Positions 18,297-35,754 of a stretch of DNA of 37,882 nucleotides are shown here, one piece after another. The position numbers and the translations under genes are program-made. The notes under the pieces were generated by a model. It was not told the origin of the DNA. It saw nothing but the letters and a program-made list of their open reading frames with translations, and did no database searches. How positions within the stretch are numbered: the stretch's first letter is position 1; each line of letters starts with the position of its first letter. The DNA is from Bdellovibrionales bacterium (GTDB lineage Bacteria > Pseudomonadota > Alphaproteobacteria > UBA9219 > RFNS01): the NCBI GenBank assembly GCA_039808825.1, contig JBDHTV010000001.1, positions 1 through 37,882 on the forward strand, in the 5' to 3' direction.

Positions 18297-19161
18297 CTTC
18301 GGCCTCGGTTATAGCGCATTGGCGCTCGCAGGGCAGCTGCGAAGTTTAGGCTGGGACGTCGCTGGCACAGCGCGCCGCCCGGACAAGATCGCCGATTTAC
18401 GCCAGCTCGGCTTTACCGTCTACCCTTTCAGCCGCACCACGCCGCTTGGCGTCGGTACCGCCGCGCTCGCCGATTTTCCTTATATCCTCCATTCCGTGCC
18501 GCCCGACGATCTCGGCGACCCGGTTTACGATCTGCATAGCTGCGATATCGTCAACCAGAACCCGAATAGCCGTTGGGTCGGCTATCTTTCGACCACCGGC
18601 GTTTATGGCGACCATCTGGGCGCGCGGGTCACTGAGACTTCGACCTGCGCGCCCACCAATCCGCGCACGGCCATGCGTGCCAAGATCGAACGGCGATGGC
18701 TAGAGCTGCAGGAACGCTGCGGCGTTCCGGTGCATATTTTCCGACTGGCTGGTATTTACGGTCCCGGCCGCAACGCGTTGCGCGACCTGCAGCGCGGCCA
18801 GGCCGTCCCCATCGTCAAACCGGGGCACCGCTTCAACCGGATTCATGTCGAGGATATCGCGCAAAGTTTGCTGGCCTCGATGCATAAGCCCGCGCCCGGC
18901 AACATCTATAATCTGGCCGACGACGAACCGGCGGACAGCGCCACCGTCGTGCGCCACGCCGCCGGGTTGCTTGGCTTGCAGCCCCCCACTCCCGTCGATT
19001 TTGCGGCCGCCAATCTCTCGCCGCAAGCGCATAGCTTTTATGCCGACAATAAAATCGTCGATAATACGAAGCTCAAGCAGGAACTGGGCGTTCGGCTCAA
19101 ATATCCGAGTTACCGCGAAGGGCTGCAAGCCCTGCTGGCAACGGAAGCACGTCGCAACTAA
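18280..19161 (+). CDS. NAD(P)-binding Rossmann-fold (SDR / epimerase-like) protein
   Basis: The start is trimmed to the ATG at 18280 so that the glycine-rich dinucleotide loop (IFIFGLGYSALAL) sits at the N-terminus. The later YLSTTGVYGD and FRLAGIYGP motifs are typical of atypical SDRs. Confidence 0.65.
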   Translation: MSRIFIFGLGYSALALAGQLRSLGWDVAGTARRPDKIADLRQLGFTVYPFSRTTPLGVGTAALADFPYILHSVPPDDLGDPVYDLHSCDIVNQNPNSRWVGYLSTTGVYGDHLGARVTETSTCAPTNPRTAMRAKIERRWLELQERCGVPVHIFRLAGIYGPGRNALRDLQRGQAVPIVKPGHRFNRIHVEDIAQSLLASMHKPAPGNIYNLADDEPADSATVVRHAAGLLGLQPPTPVDFAAANLSPQAHSFYADNKIVDNTKLKQELGVRLKYPSYREGLQALLATEARRN

Positions 19162-19195
19162 AGCGTTTTTCCCTTACGCGTAACCCAAAATTCCG

Positions 19196-19209
19196 GATAT
19201 ATTGCAATA
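19196..19209. promoter_or_regulatory. Perfect 14-bp palindrome TATATTGCAATATA, candidate operator/promoter element upstream of the 19232 ORF
   Basis: Read directly from the sequence; it is its own reverse complement. It lies 23-36 nt upstream of the ATG at 19232 in an AT-rich stretch. Confidence 0.35.
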
Positions 19210-19231
19210 TAAGAAAAAGCAGGACTACCAC

Positions 19232-19495
19232 ATGCAAGATAAGGTTTTAGTACGCTACGGCGTTGTTGATATTTTGCGCATCGAGCATGACAAAATAAGG
19301 CTTACGCTCGCGGGAAAAATTATTATCGTGCCGCATGAAAGGTTCAAAGGCAGTAATGGCGTCTGGGGCACTGCCTATGACTTGACCAATGCTTTTTATG
19401 AGACGGACCATACCCGTCTTTCCGCTGAAACGCGGGCCGTATTGCAGGAAAATATCCGGCTAGGCCACCACGAAACACCTTGTATGTTCGAATAA
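19232..19495 (+). CDS. Hypothetical small protein (87 aa), first gene of a low-GC two-gene module
   Basis: The ATG at 19232 has an AGGA SD 7 nt upstream (the ORF-track TTG at 19202 is less likely). The stop is at 19493-19495, 2 nt before the next ATG. No family recognised. Confidence 0.45.
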   Translation: MQDKVLVRYGVVDILRIEHDKIRLTLAGKIIIVPHERFKGSNGVWGTAYDLTNAFYETDHTRLSAETRAVLQENIRLGHHETPCMFE

Positions 19496-19497
19496 CC

Positions 19498-20787
19498 ATG
19501 CTGCCAAACCAACCTCAGGCGATCAGGCGTTTGGTGCGTGATAAAGCGCAAACCGATGCCCGCAATATTAGCGTCGTTTATTCCGGCCCACAGAATCTCG
19601 GTCGCGCTCTTGCCGCCGATCTGGCTGACGATGACCCCACGAAAAACAACCATGCCCGGGCCAAGCATTTTGCTCATGCGACCGGCGCGAATATTATTGA
19701 TCGCACTACGGCGGGCAGAATGCTCGTTAATCACAGCAGCGATGTGTATGTCTTATTGAGCGAAGCACGTAAAGCCGAGACCGATGCGCGTTTCCCCGAT
19801 AGGAGTGATCCCGCCTACAACACGGCGTTACAACGTGCAATTGACCACGGACGGCATCAGGCGAACTGTATTTTCAGTCTGATATCGCGTGAAATGTGCA
19901 CCACGTTGAGCGGAGCAGTTCGTACTTTTGTTTGTGGAGCAGGCGCCGACCGGGTATTTCGGCAAGACGAACTCGAATCGTTGATGCAGAATCGCGATAT
20001 CACCAGTATCAATGGCGTGGAACGTCAACGTTTTGAAAAAGTCTATCATGCGGAGCGCATCGCCGCACGGCGGAATGCAGCAACAGATGAGCGCACAGAA
20101 CTCACCCGCACGTTCCGCGCCATTTGCCTCGCCGAGTTGCGGCAGGATCGGGCACAGGCTTTCCGCACCGGCGATCCCGGCTTAATTCAGGATGTCGTGC
20201 TGCGGCATGAAATTTATCGCGGCCAGCAGGCCATAGAAAACGGCGCACCGCCCGAGCCGATCGAGGCCGTGCGCGTCCGCATCGCGGAACGCAGCGCAAA
20301 AATCATCGCCTTCACCCAGAACCGCAATCGCAGCGAAGCCCGCGCGGGGATCGAAGCCATCATGGCGGCGCGGGTCAAGCAAGGTGTTTTAACATCGGAA
20401 CACGCGGCGGCATTATCCGCCAAATTGACGGAAAAGCTGGCCGACCCGCACCGGGCCTATCGCATCAACCAGTCGCTTAAAATGCAAAAAGCGATGGAAC
20501 GCATCAGACACCAGGCCGATCCTTATGCGATGGGCGATTACACGCGGCTTTATACCGCGTTGCTGACCGATACCCAGCTCATCAAACATCGGCACGTCAC
20601 GACCGGCAACGTTCCTGCACCGGAAACAACGATCCAGCGCGCAGGCACCGCCTTTTCCGACCATGTGCGGACGCAGCAGCAGCGGGCCTACGCCCATATG
20701 GGCCAGGAAATCGCGGCAAGCCGCACGCGGCAAAACAAAGCGGGCGCAGCGGCAAACGCCAAGCCGCGCCTCCTGCCCACGACCTGA
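19498..20787 (+). CDS. Hypothetical 429-aa protein: globular N-terminal domain of about 190 aa plus a long Arg/Ala/Gln-rich helical tail. Possible NAD-utilising (ADP-ribosyl-cyclase-like) enzyme, unverified
   Basis: Long ORF that is not a shadow of any gene on the opposite strand. The start is taken at the ATG at 19498 (MLPNQPQ), right after the upstream stop. Motif order: VVYSG ... NIIDRTTAGRML ... SREMCTTLSGAVRTFVCG ... FRQDELESL. Confidence 0.55.
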   Translation: MLPNQPQAIRRLVRDKAQTDARNISVVYSGPQNLGRALAADLADDDPTKNNHARAKHFAHATGANIIDRTTAGRMLVNHSSDVYVLLSEARKAETDARFPDRSDPAYNTALQRAIDHGRHQANCIFSLISREMCTTLSGAVRTFVCGAGADRVFRQDELESLMQNRDITSINGVERQRFEKVYHAERIAARRNAATDERTELTRTFRAICLAELRQDRAQAFRTGDPGLIQDVVLRHEIYRGQQAIENGAPPEPIEAVRVRIAERSAKIIAFTQNRNRSEARAGIEAIMAARVKQGVLTSEHAAALSAKLTEKLADPHRAYRINQSLKMQKAMERIRHQADPYAMGDYTRLYTALLTDTQLIKHRHVTTGNVPAPETTIQRAGTAFSDHVRTQQQRAYAHMGQEIAASRTRQNKAGAAANAKPRLLPTT

Positions 20788-20788
20788 A

Positions 20789-21538
20789 TTAATCGAGTTT
20801 GTTGCCGAAAGTGATGAAGTGCCAGACTTCGGGCCGCTCCTGCTTGAGCCGCCGCAAGAGGCTCTCGATCTTGGCGTAGCAGGGTTGGCGCAGCCCGTGA
20901 CATTCCACGAGCGGCCCAACCGGCGCGAAATAGAGCCCTAGCCCCTCCAGCATGCGCAGCAGCGCCGGTTCCGCCAGCGCCGAGAGGTGCGTGATATGCG
21001 CCTCGCGCGCCATCATCAGCAGCACGCGCAACAGCCCAAGACTGACATGCGGAATACGCCGCTGATTGTCGCCGTCGAGCCACGGGCTCACCGCGCCATA
21101 TTCGCCGTCGTTCCAGCGGCGGCGAAATTCCTTGGCAATGAGGAAGCGCGATACTTCCGCGGTGCTTTCAGCCGGGCAGTCCTGTTGCAAGATCGGAGCA
21201 AGGGCAAAGCTCGGCAATGGCGTTTTCGCATCGGGCAGAATAAGCCTTATTGTGCCGATGAAGCGGTTATCGGGCAGATAGCATAGCACGGCCTGCCGCG
21301 CCCTGGCGTCGAACGCATCGGTCTCCAACTGTTCGGGATAATCCGCCGGGTTCAGCAGCTGCCGCTCCTCGCACAGCCCGCGATAGCGCAGATGATAGGC
21401 TGCGTTGGCGAGCGCGCTTGTCGCCGCAGGCAACGCTTCAAAATACTGCAAATATTGTTGCGTGAGATCGGCCGGGTCGGCATAGCGGGCTTCGGCGGGT
21501 TTGCGTCCGCGCCGTTTCGCTGTCAGCGTCGTTGACAT
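20789..21538 (-). CDS. GNAT-fold N-acyl amino acid synthase / PEP-CTERM-exosortase-associated-type acyltransferase (LuxI/FeeM-like)
   Basis: 249 aa. The pattern IGTIRLILPD....LP...........AEVSRF.I.KEFRRR ... LGLLR.L...A....ITH..A..EP.LLRML..LG..F...GP..E.HG.RQPCY matches what I remember of this acyltransferase family. Confidence 0.7.
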   Translation of the reverse strand: MSTTLTAKRRGRKPAEARYADPADLTQQYLQYFEALPAATSALANAAYHLRYRGLCEERQLLNPADYPEQLETDAFDARARQAVLCYLPDNRFIGTIRLILPDAKTPLPSFALAPILQQDCPAESTAEVSRFLIAKEFRRRWNDGEYGAVSPWLDGDNQRRIPHVSLGLLRVLLMMAREAHITHLSALAEPALLRMLEGLGLYFAPVGPLVECHGLRQPCYAKIESLLRRLKQERPEVWHFITFGNKLD

Positions 21539-21810: not shown

Positions 21811-23244
21811 ATGTCCCAGAAAACCCCCATCACGGTCGCCTATGGCGACGGCATTGGCCCTGAAATCATGCCCGCTGCGCTGCAGGTGCTGGAAGCCGCC
21901 GGAGCACAGCTCGCGCTGGAGCCGATTACCATCGGCGAAAAAATTTATCTGAGCGGCAACACGACCGGTATCGAAGACAGCGCCTGGGAATCCCTGCGCC
22001 GCACCAAAGTGTTCTATAAGGCTCCCATCACGACCCCGATCGGCGAAGGTTATCAGAGCCTCAACGTCACCGTGCGCAAAACGCTAGGCCTGTTCGCCAA
22101 TGTCCGTCCCTGCGTCGCCTATCATCCCTTCGTCGCGACGAAATTTCCGGGCATGGATGTCGTCATCGTGCGCGAGAACGAGGAAGACCTTTACGCCGGT
22201 ATCGAATATCAGCAGACACCGGACGTCATGCAATGTCTGAAGCTGGTGAGCGTGCAAGGCTCCGAGCGCATCATCCGTTACGCGTTCGAATATGCGCGCC
22301 AGTTCGGCCGCAAGAAGGTGACCTGCCTGCACAAGGCCAATATCATGAAGATGACGGACGGGCTGTTCCGCACCATCTTCACCCGCGTCGCAGCGGAATA
22401 TCCGGAAATCGCCAATGATCAGATGATTATCGATATCGGCACCGCGCGTCTCGCCGCGCAGCCGAACAGCTTCGATGTGATCGTCACGCTCAATCTGTAT
22501 GGCGACATCATCTCCGACGTCGCCGCTGAAATCACCGGTTCGGTCGGCCTCGGCGCTTCGAGCAATATCGGCGCGCAGGTCGCGATGTTCGAGGCCATCC
22601 ACGGCTCCGCCCCGCAGATCGCGGGCCAGAATATCGCCAATCCGTCCGGCTTGCTGCTTTCGGGCGTACTGATGCTGCTCCATATCGGCCAGGCCGAGGT
22701 TGCGGCGCGCGTGCAGAACGCCTGGCTGCGCACGCTGGAAGAAGGATTGCATACCGGCGACATTTATAAAGAAGGCTTGAGCAGGCAAAAGCTCGGCACG
22801 CAGGAATTCGCCGCCGCCGTCATCGCGCGTCTGGGGCAAGTGCCGCAGACCATGCCCGCCGCCAACTACCGGCAGCGCGGCGCGATGCAGATTCCCGCCG
22901 TGCCGGTCATCCCGCCCCAGGAACAGGAGCTGGTCGGCGTGGATGTGTTTATCGGCTGGACCGGTACGACGGATTCCCTTGCCGCCAGACTGCTCCAGCA
23001 CAAAATGCCCGAACTGCAACTGACGATGATCACGAATCGCGGCGTGCGCGTCTGGCCGAATGGATTCGCGGAAACGATGTGCAGCCAGCATTACCGTTGC
23101 CGTTATACGGGCACGAAGGTCACGCAAAAAAACATCGTTTCGCTCTTGTCACAATTGACCGATAGCGGCTGCGATATTTTGATGACCGAAACGTTACGCA
23201 ATTTCTCTGGCAAGCGCGCTTATTCGCTCGGACAAGGTGAATAA
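21811..23244 (+). CDS. icd: Isocitrate dehydrogenase (isocitrate/isopropylmalate dehydrogenase family, alphaproteobacterial type with C-terminal extension)
   Basis: The start is trimmed to MSQKTPITVAYGDGIGPEI. Family motifs include VRENEEDLYAG, NLYGDIISD and EAIHGSAP. About 130 extra C-terminal residues follow the dehydrogenase core. Confidence 0.88.
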   Translation: MSQKTPITVAYGDGIGPEIMPAALQVLEAAGAQLALEPITIGEKIYLSGNTTGIEDSAWESLRRTKVFYKAPITTPIGEGYQSLNVTVRKTLGLFANVRPCVAYHPFVATKFPGMDVVIVRENEEDLYAGIEYQQTPDVMQCLKLVSVQGSERIIRYAFEYARQFGRKKVTCLHKANIMKMTDGLFRTIFTRVAAEYPEIANDQMIIDIGTARLAAQPNSFDVIVTLNLYGDIISDVAAEITGSVGLGASSNIGAQVAMFEAIHGSAPQIAGQNIANPSGLLLSGVLMLLHIGQAEVAARVQNAWLRTLEEGLHTGDIYKEGLSRQKLGTQEFAAAVIARLGQVPQTMPAANYRQRGAMQIPAVPVIPPQEQELVGVDVFIGWTGTTDSLAARLLQHKMPELQLTMITNRGVRVWPNGFAETMCSQHYRCRYTGTKVTQKNIVSLLSQLTDSGCDILMTETLRNFSGKRAYSLGQGE

Positions 23245-23313
23245 AATCTTAAGAGCGGATTCGCGCGGCACGAAAAACACGCTAGGAAAAATTTTCCGCA
23301 TTTTTTCCATGAC

Positions 23314-23328
23314 CGGCAATTTTTGCCG
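23314..23328. promoter_or_regulatory. Inverted repeat CGGCAA-TTT-TTGCCG between icd and fliF. Candidate operator (FlbD/ftr-like) or weak icd terminator
   Basis: Perfect 6-bp arms with a 3-nt spacer, read from the sequence, followed by ATTTTGTT. It lies about 130 bp upstream of the fliF start. A TTAA-N7-TTCA element (23335-23349) is adjacent. Confidence 0.3.
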
Positions 23329-23456
23329 ATTTTGTTAATGACATATTCATAGAAACCACGCCATCCTGCACCCAACATCGCGGCACGATATTTGCCATCA
23401 AGCGATAGCAGCGGGGTGCAAAACCAGCCCCGCATCATTAAGGCGGGAGCAGGAAC

Positions 23457-32557: not shown

Positions 32558-34237
32558 ATGTCGGGGATCACGCCAACACCGCCCACGACCGGCATGTTGG
32601 TGAATGAAACCCCCTTGCCGCCTATCGCTGTCGGCACACCCACGGCACTGCCTGCCGCGCTGCCCGTGCAGGTCATCGCCCTGCCTGCCGCGCTACCACC
32701 GCCAGCCCAGACGCCCGTGACCATCGACGGCATGTTGCAGCTCTTGCTCAACGGCAAAGCGACCTTCACGACCGACGCCGGCGACGTCACGCTCAATCTG
32801 CCGCAGTTGCCGGGCAATCCGGCACTGTTTCAGGCGATCAAGAATTTCGTCGCCGATGGTACGCCGTTGCAGCTCAAGCTGCAGCCGAATGTGAACGGCG
32901 TACTCGACGCGCAGTTGCTGTTTCCAGTCAATCATGTCGCGCAAACGGCAGTCCAGACGACCAGCGTCAACCTGACCAGCTTTATCGGCCAGACACTGCA
33001 GGCGATTTTGCTGCCGCCCGCTGCCAAACAACCAAGCGGCGGCAATGCACCTGGCAGCTCCGCCAAAAGCGGGCCCGGACAGGCGCAAGGCGGCGCAAAC
33101 AGCAGCCAGCCAGCCAGCCCACCGATAACGCCACAAGCCGCGACCGCCAGCCAGCGCCCCACGCCGCAACAGCCGGGCGGCAATCGGCTGGAGCAAATCA
33201 TCCGCAGCATGTTGCCTGCCGCGCCGACCGTTACCGCTGCCGCAGCACAGCCACCGGCACAGTCCGCTGCTGCTGCCACCGGCCCGTTGCCGGTCAATCT
33301 GCAAGCCTCGAGCGCGCTGACCAACGGCGCGCCGGTGCTGAACCTCAAGCTGCAGCAGATTATCCCGCCGGGCCAGCCGCTGCCGCAGCTTCAGCCAGAC
33401 GAAGTGTTGCTCACGGTGCCGGACCAGGCCGAGCGCAGCGCGCTGCCGCTCGTGACGAGTGGCAACAGCAGCCTGCTGCTCAAAACCGCCGCGCCTTTGC
33501 TGCCGGGCAGTACGTTACTCGTCAAGCTATTGCCTGGCGCAACACCAGGCACGTTGGAATTGCATGAGCCTAAAACCTGGCCGGCATTGCAGGAACTGCT
33601 GAACAACATGGCCACCAGCCAAGCCCCCGCTCTGCAACGTTTCCAGCAACTGCGTTTGCCGCAGGGGAACGCCGCCCTACCCGGCGCACTGCTCTTCGTT
33701 CTTTCCGCGCTGCAATCCGGTGACAGCGCCCCTTGGCTCGGCCATAGCGGCGTCAGCACCATTGAACAGAACCAGAAGACATTGCTTGATGCGTTGCAGC
33801 AGGAATTCCGCCACGCGGTTAGCACGACCAGCGACCCGGTGGTCGGCGAATGGCGCAGCTATCAGCTGCCGGTACTGGACCAGAACCAGCTCCAGCCGCT
33901 GCATATCTATGTGCATCATAATCTGCGCCACCAGCCAAACGGCGGCGACGGCCAGACGCAAGAGGCGCAAACGCCGGTCAAACAGACGCGCTTTATCATC
34001 GACGTCACCTTTACCCGGCTCGGCAAGATGCAGTTTGACGGCTTCGTGCAGGCCAAACAGTTCGATCTCGTCATGCGCAGCGAACAGCCAATTGCGCCGG
34101 AGCTGCGCGACGAGCTACGCGCCGCTTTTGCGGACGCCGTAACGGCCAGCGGCTATCAGGGCCAGATGCTGTTCCAGACCGGCAACCATAACTGGCTTTA
34201 TCTTGCCCCCAATCTGCATGATAACCGCCGGATTTAA
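32558..34237 (+). CDS. Pro/Gln/Ala-rich protein with a FliK-like C-terminal domain (candidate hook-length control protein)
   Basis: 559 aa, low-complexity N-terminal two thirds. The C-terminal segment FIIDVTFTRLGKMQFDGFVQAKQFDLVMRSEQPIAPELRDELRAAFADAVTASGYQG has the L-G-x-hydrophobic ... L...L..L...G layout of the Flg_hook domain. The start is 3 nt after the flhG stop. Confidence 0.5.
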   Translation: MSGITPTPPTTGMLVNETPLPPIAVGTPTALPAALPVQVIALPAALPPPAQTPVTIDGMLQLLLNGKATFTTDAGDVTLNLPQLPGNPALFQAIKNFVADGTPLQLKLQPNVNGVLDAQLLFPVNHVAQTAVQTTSVNLTSFIGQTLQAILLPPAAKQPSGGNAPGSSAKSGPGQAQGGANSSQPASPPITPQAATASQRPTPQQPGGNRLEQIIRSMLPAAPTVTAAAAQPPAQSAAAATGPLPVNLQASSALTNGAPVLNLKLQQIIPPGQPLPQLQPDEVLLTVPDQAERSALPLVTSGNSSLLLKTAAPLLPGSTLLVKLLPGATPGTLELHEPKTWPALQELLNNMATSQAPALQRFQQLRLPQGNAALPGALLFVLSALQSGDSAPWLGHSGVSTIEQNQKTLLDALQQEFRHAVSTTSDPVVGEWRSYQLPVLDQNQLQPLHIYVHHNLRHQPNGGDGQTQEAQTPVKQTRFIIDVTFTRLGKMQFDGFVQAKQFDLVMRSEQPIAPELRDELRAAFADAVTASGYQGQMLFQTGNHNWLYLAPNLHDNRRI

Positions 34238-34345: not shown

Positions 34346-34420
34346 GCGGGCGTAGCTCAGGGGTAGAGCATAACCTTGCCAAGGTTAGGGCCGAGGGTTC
34401 GAATCCCTTCGCCCGCTCCA
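34346..34420 (+). tRNA. tRNA-Gly (anticodon GCC)
   Basis: Hand-folded cloverleaf. Acceptor GCGGGCG/CGCCCGC, D-arm GCTC-AGGGGTA-GAGC, anticodon stem TAACC/GGTTA with loop TTGCCAA, T-arm GAGGG-TTCGAAT-CCCTT, discriminator T and encoded CCA. 75 nt. Confidence 0.93.
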
Positions 34421-34498: not shown

Positions 34499-34870
34499 AT
34501 GTTCCTCCTCAAATATTTCCGCGGGCTTTTTGCCAAGCCTTCCCTCGCCATTCAGCCTATGCAGCAAACAACCTGCCTCACTGACATTATGGCCGCTTGG
34601 CCTATTCTTAAAACAGGCACCTGGCATTATGGCAACGGTACGGACATAGCGGTTCGTATAGTGGAGAGCCCTCTTTACTCAGGCTCGGGCGATTATGAAG
34701 ATCCGCCAGAAATCAGCGATGATCGCGACGAAATATGTTACTGCATCGGCTATGAAGCATCGGGCTGCCCGGCCAAGTTTATTTACTGGCTAAACATTCC
34801 AACACTTGCCGAAGCAATCAGTCTTACGGAAGAAAAATTCCCGGGCATTCGGTGGGACGCCGTGAGCTGA
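34499..34870 (+). CDS. Hypothetical protein (123 aa), orphan ORF downstream of tRNA-Gly
   Basis: The ATG at 34499 has an AGGAG SD 6 nt upstream. The ORF-track start at 34376 would run through the tRNA and terminator, so I rejected it. G+C is lower than the surroundings. No family recognised. Confidence 0.45.
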   Translation: MFLLKYFRGLFAKPSLAIQPMQQTTCLTDIMAAWPILKTGTWHYGNGTDIAVRIVESPLYSGSGDYEDPPEISDDRDEICYCIGYEASGCPAKFIYWLNIPTLAEAISLTEEKFPGIRWDAVS

Positions 34871-34914
34871 AGCATCAGGCCGCGTCATTACAAACGTGTT
34901 CGCTTTTTGGCCCA

Positions 34915-35754
34915 TCACCCCACCAGCCGTTCGCCGCTTGCGACAAGCTCAGCGATAAAAGCATCGTCTTTCAGATATTGTTGCAGATGCGACCGCATCT
35001 GTTCCGCACCCACTCGTTCGCGCAGGCGCTGATACCAGACCCGGAACACCGGGAATTTGCGCACATTGTGATAGTGGAACAAAATCTCGGCATAAGGCCG
35101 CCAGGTGACATAGAGATCGTCAAGCTGCGGACAGATCGCGATCATCTCATCGTCATCGGTATGGCGCCAACAATTGAACATGCCGTGAAAGCCGAAAGTC
35201 GGGCGATCCGGCGTGTGCCGCTCATAGGCGAACTGGTCGGCAACCGCCTCCGGCGCAAATTTGATGCCGTGATATTGCTCCAGCGGCTCGCGCACCGTGT
35301 GGCAGAAATAGACATCGTCGAAAAACGCACCCGCCTCCGGTAGCGGCATCTCCGCCATGATATCGAGCAACTTTTTGGAGCGCAGGCAAAAACCGCTATT
35401 GCCGACGCGCCGTCCTTCGATATGCCACGGCCATTTCGCGCCGATGAAATCATAGTCGTAGAACTTGTCCGTCCATGCGCCCGTATCGACGATATAGCCG
35501 TCATATTGGACGAGCAGGTTGAAGGCGGAGTTGGTGTGTCTGGTCAGGTTGCGGCAAACCAACGGCGCGTAATCGATACCGCGGAAGGGCGGCACGACCT
35601 CGACCCGGAACGGCGCGTCAACCGCCTGACCAGCGATCATCACCACATCGGCGAAGTCGCACTGTTCCATGCACAGCTTGACCGCCCGCACGGTCAGCTC
35701 ATAATTAATGGAAGTGACGGCGCAGAGCGTGACATCGGGCAGTTGCAGGCGCAT
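34915..35754 (-). CDS. DUF5672-like protein (putative glycosyltransferase-fold enzyme)
   Basis: 279 aa. YDFIGAKWPW....RVGNSGFCLRSKKLL resembles the DUF5672 signature (IGAPW ... GNGGFSLR) as I remember it. Confidence 0.6.
   Translation of the reverse strand: MRLQLPDVTLCAVTSINYELTVRAVKLCMEQCDFADVVMIAGQAVDAPFRVEVVPPFRGIDYAPLVCRNLTRHTNSAFNLLVQYDGYIVDTGAWTDKFYDYDFIGAKWPWHIEGRRVGNSGFCLRSKKLLDIMAEMPLPEAGAFFDDVYFCHTVREPLEQYHGIKFAPEAVADQFAYERHTPDRPTFGFHGMFNCWRHTDDDEMIAICPQLDDLYVTWRPYAEILFHYHNVRKFPVFRVWYQRLRERVGAEQMRSHLQQYLKDDAFIAELVASGERLVG

Follow-up and report, generated by a model that had tools for sequence, protein, structure and literature searches.

A two-gene module behind an AT-rich leader

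The stretch analysed here, hereafter the window, covers positions 1-37,882 of the forward strand of contig JBDHTV010000001.1 (GCA_039808825.1), from a Bdellovibrionales bacterium that GTDB places in Alphaproteobacteria; UBA9219; RFNS01. Between an SDR-family gene and a convergent acyltransferase gene it carries a two-gene module, orf87-orf429, whose larger product is predicted to begin with a domain of the ADP-ribosyl cyclase (ARC)/CD38 fold. The first gene, orf87 (19232..19495, +; ATG at 19232, TAA at 19493-19495), encodes 87 amino acids (aa; 10.0 kDa, pI 6.5), and the second, orf429 (19498..20787, +; ATG at 19498, TGA at 20785-20787), encodes 429 aa (47.8 kDa, pI 10.0). Both open reading frames (ORFs) are intact and lie on the same strand with a gap of 2 nt (CC), and each shows the coding-type pattern GC1>GC2<GC3 in G+C content at the three codon positions. 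An AGGA ribosome-binding site at 19221-19224 stands 7 nt ahead of the orf87 start codon; on direct reading of the sequence, orf429 lacks its own Shine-Dalgarno sequence, and this, together with the 2-nt gap, fits translational coupling by termination-reinitiation. Coupling had been suggested from this layout in an initial annotation made from the sequence alone, and the layout is exact.

The AT-rich leader, read directly from the sequence, spans the 70 nt from the SDR-family gene stop to orf87 (19162..19231, +), and we presume it to be the promoter/operator region of a two-gene operon. It contains the palindrome TTACGCGTAA at 19174-19183, just past the SDR stop codon, and a perfect 14-bp palindrome, TATATTGCAATATA, at 19198-19211, which ends 9 nt before AGGA; from their sequence, the remains of a terminator as well as an operator or -10 region are conceivable. 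A sigma-70 consensus scan found no promoter in 19162-19231.

Base composition sets the 5' part of the module apart. The hand counts of the initial annotation, 38% G+C in 19201-19260 against 67% in 18961-19020 of the SDR gene, are exact (38.3% and 66.7%). Positions 19201-19500 have 46% G+C, and 0.8% of the 300-nt intervals in the 37.9-kb window (mean 61.4%) are as low or lower. G+C content at third codon positions (GC3) is 0.51 in orf87, 0.53 in codons 1-190 of orf429 and 0.71 in codons 191-429, compared with 0.71-0.83 in the neighbouring genes. This step to the host level inside orf429 is absent from the homologous genes in the loci L081-L094 described below; chimeric origin and uneven amelioration are possible causes. 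The DNA of the relatives has 38-50% G+C, in agreement with the 47-53% in the 5' part of the module. At the other end, the orf429 stop codon and that of the convergent acyltransferase gene (20789-20791, -) are 1 nt apart.

The N-terminal domain of orf429 is predicted to be an ARC/CD38-fold enzyme

The initial annotation had noticed, in the N-terminal part of orf429, motifs that resemble those of ARC/CD38 enzymes and follow the same order. A family profile bears this out as homology, in the proposed register. When 1.84 billion cluster representatives were scanned exhaustively with HMMER (cut-off E<=1e-3), 91 distant relatives of orf429 emerged (best E-value 4e-15); their common core corresponds to orf429 residues ~20-250. 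Searched against the PDB, a profile of 81 relatives matched 9ro8, the ADP-ribosyl-cyclase toxin of Pantoea ananatis (E=4.6e-14), 9ouf (6.6e-9) and 1lbe, the Aplysia ADP-ribosyl cyclase (3.2e-6), and a trimmed 44-sequence profile gave the same ranking (4e-11, 5e-8 and 2.2e-5). The molecule name of 9ouf in the sequence file, 'Ribonuclease', is misleading: the structure is described as the Streptococcus parasanguinis ADP-ribosyl hydrolase (Tac1). The Pfam family PF02267 gave weak matches for 26 of the 81 relatives (best 4e-7), with orf429 itself below the gathering score, a miss that we ascribe to the sensitivity limit of a metazoan-centred model and that does not contradict the profile result. 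Against a family hidden Markov model (HMM) built without it, orf429 scored 170.5 bits. In this way, a protein missed by Pfam, NCBIfam, PADLOC and single-sequence PDB searches was placed confidently through the profile of a family collected by exhaustive HMMER scanning.

Residue conservation was counted over 86 aligned relatives. The only invariant columns are S130 (19885-19887) and E158 (19969-19971), each conserved in 86/86. E158 aligns to the catalytic glutamate (CD38 E226, Aplysia E179, Tac1 E573), and S130 to the active-site serine (CD38 S193, Aplysia S144), four residues past the second pocket aromatic. The second acidic residue (CD38 E146, Aplysia E98, Tac1 E516) corresponds to D68 (19699-19701), a position that holds Asp or Glu in 65 of the 86. 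In Tac1, mutation of the E226-equivalent alone abolishes both activity and toxicity, and the E146-equivalent residue governs release of the cyclic intermediate (PMC12356396). Because orf429 has Asp, not Glu, at position 68, its product ratio is not predictable. Y28 aligns to the pocket aromatic CD38 W125 (Aplysia W77), at a position that is aromatic in 81/86 relatives (Tyr 66, Trp 8, Phe 7). Position 126, equivalent to CD38 W189, is Phe in orf429 and, in the family, Trp in 44/86 and Met in 24. Further conserved positions are S29 (71 relatives), G30 (74), T70 (80), G73 (81), G139 (85), T143 (80) and F154 (84). In terms of motifs, VVYSG corresponds to FWSG, IIDRT to TLEDT, SREM...GAVRTFVCG to the (W)xxAS...GEVxxMVxGS block and FRQDELESL to the catalytic-Glu block; all four prove to be conserved in the family and are no chance resemblance. 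The DELESL glutamate and the IIDRT block, on which the initial annotation had staked its proposal, are thus kept in the homologues, as the counts for E158, T70 and D68 show.

Structure prediction pointed the same way. A single-sequence AlphaFold2 model was unusable, with a predicted local distance difference test (pLDDT) score of 52.8 and values below 50 in the N-terminal domain. Given the 86-sequence alignment, AlphaFold2 modelled residues 1-262 with pLDDT 86.6 and a predicted template modelling (pTM) score of 0.86, and pLDDT exceeded 90 over most of the ARC core. The top seven Foldseek matches of this predicted structure in the PDB are all ARC-type NADases: 9ro8 (probability 1.00, target-normalised template modelling (TM) score 0.65), 9ouf (probability 0.98) and five chains from Vibrio vulnificus RDTND NADase entries (best probability 0.97). 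The profile-to-PDB matches, the AlphaFold2 model and Foldseek place the ARC catalytic core at residues ~20-175 (19555..20022, +). Hence, we assign, with high confidence at the level of sequence and model, an ARC/CD38-fold domain with a predicted intact catalytic set to the N-terminal part of orf429.

Helical extension and basic tail

The core is followed by a family-specific helical extension at residues ~176-250 (20023..20247, +), delimited by conservation in the relatives and by the AlphaFold2 model. Its motif, ING..R...AFR.IC.AEL.Q.R..A..TGD...D...R..Y, of which R..F..(A/T)FR.IC.AEL.Q.R..A..TGD...D...R..Y is a second form, is conserved across 44-86 relatives (E213 in 77/86), and its helices, 176-192, 203-224 and 227-247, are modelled at pLDDT ~90-97. 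The toxin domains in the PDB, 127-159 residues long, lack this ~75-residue extension, which should pack onto the ARC core according to the prediction.

The remainder of the protein, residues ~251-429 (20248..20787, +), is a basic, Ala/Arg/Gln/Thr-rich helical tail, delimited by alignment with the closest full-length relatives. The Arg/Ala/Gln-rich helical character initially ascribed to the C-terminal region is evident in residues 191-429, a segment predicted to be helical with Ala at 16%, Arg at 12% and Gln at 7%. Segment 263-429 has a pI of 10.6 and the last 30 residues carry a net charge of +4; across the family, C-terminal positive charge is a mild trend (mean +1.9 versus +0.4 in internal windows, standard deviation 2.9). 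The tail aligns only with those of the closest full-length relatives, P0004, P0010, P0020 and P0032, at 17-20% identity and with the common motifs DP.(K/R)AYR and AKPR(L/I), and it had no Pfam or PDB-profile match. We consider it, from its sequence, a candidate delivery or recognition region. Neither protein of the module has a transmembrane segment or a signal-peptide-like stretch (highest Kyte-Doolittle 19-residue mean 0.87 in orf429 and 0.64 in orf87), in agreement with the first reading of the large protein.

Tail ends differ between subfamilies. P0093, from a Gloeothece plasmid, and its nearest relatives end in ...PPPP(Q)QS(Q/P)KR(G/S)R, the terminal motif of another subfamily is ...(A/T)GLH, and in a third ANPHL occurs as an internal motif. 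Such subfamily-specific motifs may be recognition signals.

Upstream partners and genomic context of the relatives

The pairing of the large gene with a small partner, noted at this locus from the start, recurs among the relatives: in all nine informative ones, the ARC start is preceded, at a distance of 4-30 nt, by the end of a gene on the same strand. The gap measures 2 nt in the window copy and 4, 5, 5, 5, 5, 12, 14, 24, 27 and 30 nt in the relatives. Judged from these gene positions, the small upstream partner is well supported as a conserved arrangement. That the partners also form one homologous family is tentatively supported. The partners L090_102 and L092_85 are clear homologues (E=1.7e-14), and these 102- and 85-aa proteins resemble the C-terminal third of the 222-aa partners and part of a 186-aa protein. 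An HMM of six partners ranked orf87 best of 833 six-frame ORFs (E=0.028), and hhalign aligned orf87 with the partner profile over 57 columns in the same register, including a G..I.VP.E motif (P=4.9e-4); the match of L097_93 to the profile is marginal (P=0.007). Patchy similarity among partners is the usual pattern of fast-evolving immunity proteins or antitoxins. By itself, orf87 had no match in Pfam, NCBIfam, PADLOC or PHROGs and found only itself among 5.8e9 proteins. We regard it as a candidate neutralising (immunity/antitoxin) and/or chaperone protein.

The contexts of six of the nine informative relatives adjoin relaxase, coupling-protein or DotI genes. At L090/L091 (P0010), the order is relaxase, a 58-aa gene, DUF736, the 102-aa partner and ARC; at L092/L093 (P0020), a DUF736-like gene, the 85-aa partner and ARC, with DotI/IcmL convergent downstream. 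In L081, L084 and L086/L087, a coupling-protein gene is followed by a gene for a 77-aa membrane protein, the 222-aa partner and ARC. L081 is the Gloeothece verrucosa plasmid NC_014534, typed as conjugative, with two metagenome contigs as the other carriers of the arrangement; the conserved ~77-aa predicted membrane protein, which in these loci always comes between the coupling-protein and 222-aa genes, is encoded at L081 6998-7228, L084 3970-4203 and L086 2196-2429. In these cyanobacterial-type plasmid loci, the N-terminal part of the 222-aa partner matches RepB_primase_C weakly (2.2e-5). L094/L095 (P0032) has two coupling-protein genes, genes of 466, 186 and 178 aa, and a 735-aa fusion (L094 8001-10208) in which a Zeta_toxin kinase domain (E=1e-30) is joined to an ARC domain and tail; downstream of the fusion, L094 carries an orphan N6/N4 DNA methyltransferase gene and a ResIII helicase gene. 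P0032 has two toxin-type, nucleotide-directed domains in a single polypeptide.

The remaining contexts are more varied. At L082/L083 (P0030), a 127-aa gene and ARC precede an excisionase-type helix-turn-helix gene and a type I restriction-modification system; L098 (P0019) has the order 391 aa, ARC, 409 aa, 116 aa; and L097 (P0022) is a 1.4-kb contig with a 93-aa gene, ARC and nothing further. The pair at L096 (P0033), a 138-aa gene and ARC, stands alone among housekeeping genes, as in the window. The neighbourhoods of the window copy, L096 and L082 contain no relaxase, coupling-protein or T4SS (type IV secretion system) genes. A tblastn search with the ARC domain found one plasmid, Gloeothece NC_014534, and no phage homologue, and a metagenome locus scan with alignment A3 gave 89 pattern matches, none of which was confirmed.

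Proposed function

The position of the clade next to relaxase and coupling-protein genes, the N-terminal enzyme with its C-terminal extension and the Zeta-ARC fusion mirror toxin-antitoxin toxins for which export by type IV secretion systems (T4SS) has been shown or proposed (PMC5675462). Given this, we favour, with a probability of roughly 55%, the reading that orf87-orf429 encodes a toxin that cleaves NAD(P)+ and, upstream, the partner that neutralises it, a pair of the kind recruited by conjugative elements for T4SS export and present here as a stand-alone chromosomal copy. L096, as a second stand-alone pair in housekeeping DNA, counts in its favour.

The analysis shows how the genes are arranged, that orf429 belongs to the family, that it is homologous to ARC enzymes with the catalytic residues invariant, and where the relatives lie; beyond this, for enzyme activity, product, toxicity, neutralisation by orf87 and secretion, we infer the following course. 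Both genes would be transcribed from the AT-rich leader and, with translation coupled across the 2-nt gap, both proteins would be made together. Between its two lobes, the N-terminal domain of orf429 would have a cleft that binds NAD+ or NADP+, with E158 as the presumed catalytic carboxylate and S130, D68 and the aromatics Y28 and F126 lining the pocket. Cleavage of the nicotinamide-ribose bond would release ADP-ribose, possibly via or along with cyclic ADP-ribose. Unchecked, this activity would drain the NAD(P)+ of the cell, and orf87 would bind and neutralise the enzyme in the producer. The module would stem from a previously undescribed ARC clade whose main carriers are conjugative plasmids and integrative elements, on which relaxase or coupling-protein genes directly precede it. 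There, the long basic tail is probably a type IV secretion recognition region, by analogy to VbhT, which is exported alongside DNA.

Several observations weigh against this reading. As a single sequence, orf429 had no match in Pfam (E<=1), NCBIfam, PADLOC, PHROGs or, by phmmer, the PDB, and a word-indexed homologue search returned only itself; alone it lies below every threshold, so the link to ARC enzymes rests on the family profile. Two pocket tryptophans of CD38 and Tac1 are replaced by Tyr and Phe, and ELP.L has become ELESL. Foldseek gave weak E-values (0.027 at best) and, when normalised to the query, a TM score of 0.34, which we attribute to the ~40% of the model that consists of family-specific helices. 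On the side of the partners, L082_127 and L096_138 show no similarity to the others, homology of orf87 to other partners is marginal, and neither Imm74 nor any other known family could be assigned to partner proteins, which had no Pfam match. Likewise, the tail could not be assigned to BID or another known secretion-signal domain, having no Pfam or PDB-profile match, although a signal of another type is conceivable, given the net +4 of the last 30 residues and the common AKPR(L/I) motif. Moreover, orf429 ends ~10-20 residues earlier than P0004, P0010 and P0020, just past the common AKPR(L/I) motif; as this end lies hard against the neighbouring gene, the tail may be truncated, and this point may be the junction of a deletion or recombination by which the gene was clipped. 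The 37.9-kb window contains no integrase, transposase, relaxase or T4SS/secretion gene, so secretion cannot be argued for the orf429 copy. Finally, delivery of an NAD-depleting toxin to the recipient would seem to hinder plasmid spread, and non-toxic bacterial ARC enzymes such as Nac1 exist (PMC12356396).

The cost that a recipient-killing toxin would impose on a plasmid also speaks for an anti-defence or establishment factor. The ARC protein, carried by conjugative elements and possibly injected, would then alter NAD-derived immune signalling in the recipient, and the partner would serve as chaperone or adaptor, not as immunity protein; for example, it might hydrolyse cyclic-ADP-ribose-type messengers from TIR/Thoeris-like systems instead of killing. 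Such a role would suit genes in transfer or leading-type regions, by relaxase, DUF736 and coupling-protein genes, as well as the orphan methyltransferase and helicase genes downstream of the L094 fusion; the Zeta fusion of P0032 fits the 'polyvalent protein' theme of conjugative elements, and ARC enzymes are bifunctional and hydrolyse cyclic ADP-ribose (PMC12356396). However, the signal-degrading activity is hypothetical, an acidic side chain at the E146 position and an invariant catalytic glutamate would suit a plain NADase just as well, and toxin-neutraliser pairs are where a tightly coupled small upstream gene is more typically seen. A tblastn search returned no phage homologue, and the stand-alone copies in housekeeping DNA, in the window and in L096, would have no obvious use for an establishment role. 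We therefore consider this role unlikely, if the foremost of the alternatives. A more far-reaching version, in which conjugative plasmids and integrative conjugative elements export a whole CD38-fold clade with their DNA through the T4SS, with the small partner restraining or escorting it, so that NAD-derived immune signalling of the recipient is rewired, strikes us as improbable and stands below the general anti-defence role. Were it true, enzymatic anti-defence proteins would gain a new class, and the ARC fold a new route of secretion. Should the favoured toxin-neutraliser mechanism be true, the ARC fold would be added to the few toxin-antitoxin-type enzymes known to accompany conjugative DNA, with consequences for the view of what plasmids do to recipient cells and of where NAD-targeting effectors originate.

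Comparison with known systems

Bacterial ARC/CD38-fold NADase toxins were predicted in 2012 as Tox-ARC (PMC3482391) and characterised in 2025 (PMC12356396, PMC12605009). This corrects the initial annotation as to the enzyme class; only the architecture and context are undescribed. The novelty lies in the ARC architecture, the upstream position of the partner and the association with conjugative elements, the enzyme class being already known in bacteria. In the toxins described so far, ARC is a C-terminal warhead behind LXG, PAAR, VgrG, Rhs, CdiA or TPS domains (PMC3482391, PMC12356396, PMC12605009), and the immunity gene, Imm74 or other, lies downstream; a few partner-less 'Nac' enzymes have also been described (PMC12356396, PMC12605009). 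CD38-fold bacterial NADases shown experimentally, from 2025 on, are only C-terminal warheads of type VI secretion (T6SS), type VII secretion (T7SS) or contact-dependent inhibition, or secreted stand-alone cyclases. The present locus and its ~90 distant relatives have a different arrangement, with ARC first, then the helical extension and the basic tail, a partner upstream and relaxase or coupling-protein genes as recurrent neighbours.

Tac1 (S. parasanguinis, T7SS, 9ouf) and the PAAR-ARC toxin (Pantoea ananatis, T6SS, 9ro8) share with orf429 the catalytic fold and motif order. The blocks common to the ARC toxins and the orf429 family are FWSG/YSG, T(L/I)E.T, W..aS..YA..sG.V and ELP.L..N..VT.I, and in both cases the enzyme is paired with a small cognate protein. 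In contrast to the toxins, orf429 has its ARC domain at the N-terminus (residues ~20-175 of 429) rather than the C-terminus, followed by its own ~75-residue helical extension and the long basic tail, and neither orf429 nor any of eight long relatives possesses LXG, PAAR, VgrG, Rhs, CdiA or another trafficking domain. The partner gene is upstream and is not Imm74, the downstream gene being the convergent TIGR03694 acyltransferase. Furthermore, relatives of orf429 lie beside conjugative T4SS genes, a context listed for ARC domains in neither PMC12356396 nor PMC12605009. With the metazoan cyclases (Aplysia cyclase, CD38/BST1; PF02267), orf429 has the core fold and active-site residues in common, but it lacks their N-terminal disulphide-rich helical lobe, signal peptide and membrane anchor, has Tyr/Phe for the Trp aromatics, and is cytoplasmic and paired with a partner gene.

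In its layout, the module resembles VbhT/VbhA of Bartonella schoenbuchensis (PMC5675462): a small gene upstream, an enzyme domain at the N-terminus and a helical extension at the C-terminus, with neutralisation by orf87 being putative. Harms et al. list VbhT, Methylobacterium FicT and Chelativorans PezT as toxins for which T4SS export has been shown or proposed, and describe toxin-antitoxin toxins that carry C-terminal extensions and are encoded just downstream of the relaxase as conjugative T4SS substrates (PMC5675462). The joining of a Zeta/PezT-type domain to ARC in P0032 parallels the FicT and PezT toxins with BID domains. Unlike VbhT, orf429 has a toxin fold unrelated to FIC or Zeta, its tail has no similarity to BID, and the copy in the window has no T4SS nearby.

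Nac1 of Actinophytocola oryzae (PMC12356396) is, like orf429, a bacterial ARC outside a polymorphic toxin locus, which raises the possibility that orf429 makes cyclic ADP-ribose or a related nucleotide for the physiology of its own cell, with orf87 as regulator and without any role in conflict. Colautti et al. found bacterial ARCs outside toxin systems that make cyclic ADP-ribose and are non-toxic (PMC12356396), and the window copy does sit among housekeeping genes, away from secretion or mobility genes. However, Nac1 carries a signal peptide, has Ala where the second glutamate would be and is without an apparent partner gene, none of which applies to orf429, with its D68. The family is sporadic, compositionally foreign here and mostly carried on mobile elements, and its absence from this locus in the two closest genomes is not a housekeeping pattern. 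A Nac1-like function seems improbable to us and ranks at the low end of the alternatives.

Genomic surroundings and origin of the window copy

The toxin-neutraliser reading includes a horizontal origin of the window copy, which would have been left by, or captured from, a conjugative element and would now act as a toxin-antitoxin-like pair. Upstream of the module, the window contains sucA, sucB, lpdA, genes for a phosphoglycerate mutase, glycosyltransferases, YdjC, PBP1A, an APH-family kinase and RNase H, then gluQ, a TPR-protein gene and the SDR/epimerase-family gene. Downstream follow the convergent TIGR03694 acyltransferase and isocitrate dehydrogenase genes, and the right part of the window holds fliF, fliG, a sigma-54 activator gene, flhA, flhF, a MinD-like gene and tRNA-Gly. 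A defence-island setting, which the initial annotation had raised as a question, was rejected for the window: all other genes in the window are housekeeping or flagellar, PADLOC-DB gave no match at E<=1 for orf87, orf429 or the neighbouring gene, and the recurrent context of the relatives is conjugative-transfer genes instead.

The closest genomes in a species-level collection are two uncultured Rhodospirillales metagenome-assembled genomes, with an SDR orthologue 75-77% identical. Both keep gluQ-TPR-SDR, and synteny stops exactly at the SDR 3' end (window ~19134). There, the SDR gene is followed by an RNase E/G-like gene, maf, infA, hisG and murA (L001 6859-11696, L002 864-6450), none of which is present in the window. 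Thus orf87-orf429 is absent from this locus in both genomes, and it is the whole right-hand 18.7 kb, beyond the module alone, that is differently placed. An empty site was sought among 80 loci with an SDR orthologue; the acyltransferase or isocitrate dehydrogenase gene is adjacent in none, so the boundaries of an insertion are not definable. A search for att-like direct repeats on either side of the module found none. At 90% identity, even the FlhA of the window stands alone among 15 billion proteins, so that sampling of the lineage must be sparse, which accounts for part of the orphan status of both ORFs. From the G+C dip, the 38-50% G+C of the relatives and the end of synteny at the SDR gene, we propose that the module is of foreign origin and was horizontally acquired.

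The same surroundings could be taken to mean that the module is a decaying remnant, a stranded and functionless piece of a former integrated conjugative element whose ORFs are intact only through recent insertion. The break of synteny at the SDR gene and the lack of mobility genes around the module are in keeping with this, as are the abutting stop codons, the absence of the last ~10-20 residues of the relatives and the odd GC3 step inside orf429; no close relative is at hand for a test of purifying selection. On the other hand, both ORFs are uninterrupted, all invariant residues of the family are kept, and the coupling and ribosome-binding site are intact. The host-like GC3 of the C-terminal half (0.71) suggests long residence under selection or recombination and not fresh decay, and a similar stand-alone pair is maintained in L096. 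Hence, we hold decay to be unlikely as well, second among the alternatives after the anti-defence role. For the host genome, the practical meaning is modest: within a housekeeping region lies a small island that was acquired horizontally and is probably toxin-antitoxin-like.

Other features of the window

The convergent gene next to the module (20789-21538, -) encodes a TIGR03694 PEP-CTERM/exosortase system-associated acyltransferase, FeeM/GNAT-like (196 bits). It stands alone, no exosortase or PEP-CTERM genes being recognisable in the 37.9-kb window. A second low-G+C spot, the minimum of the 300-nt profile, lies at 23101-23400 (45.7%) and comprises the isocitrate dehydrogenase end and the spacer before fliF. 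Behind tRNA-Gly(GCC) at 34346-34420, G+C content falls to 51-54% at 34501-35100, and the stretch to 35754, with ORFs without assignment and a DUF5672 gene (-), could be another small island. Directly after flhF and the MinD-like gene, a 559-aa ORF (32558-34237, +) with no Pfam match at E<=1e-4 may encode an unrecognised protein of the flagellar cluster.

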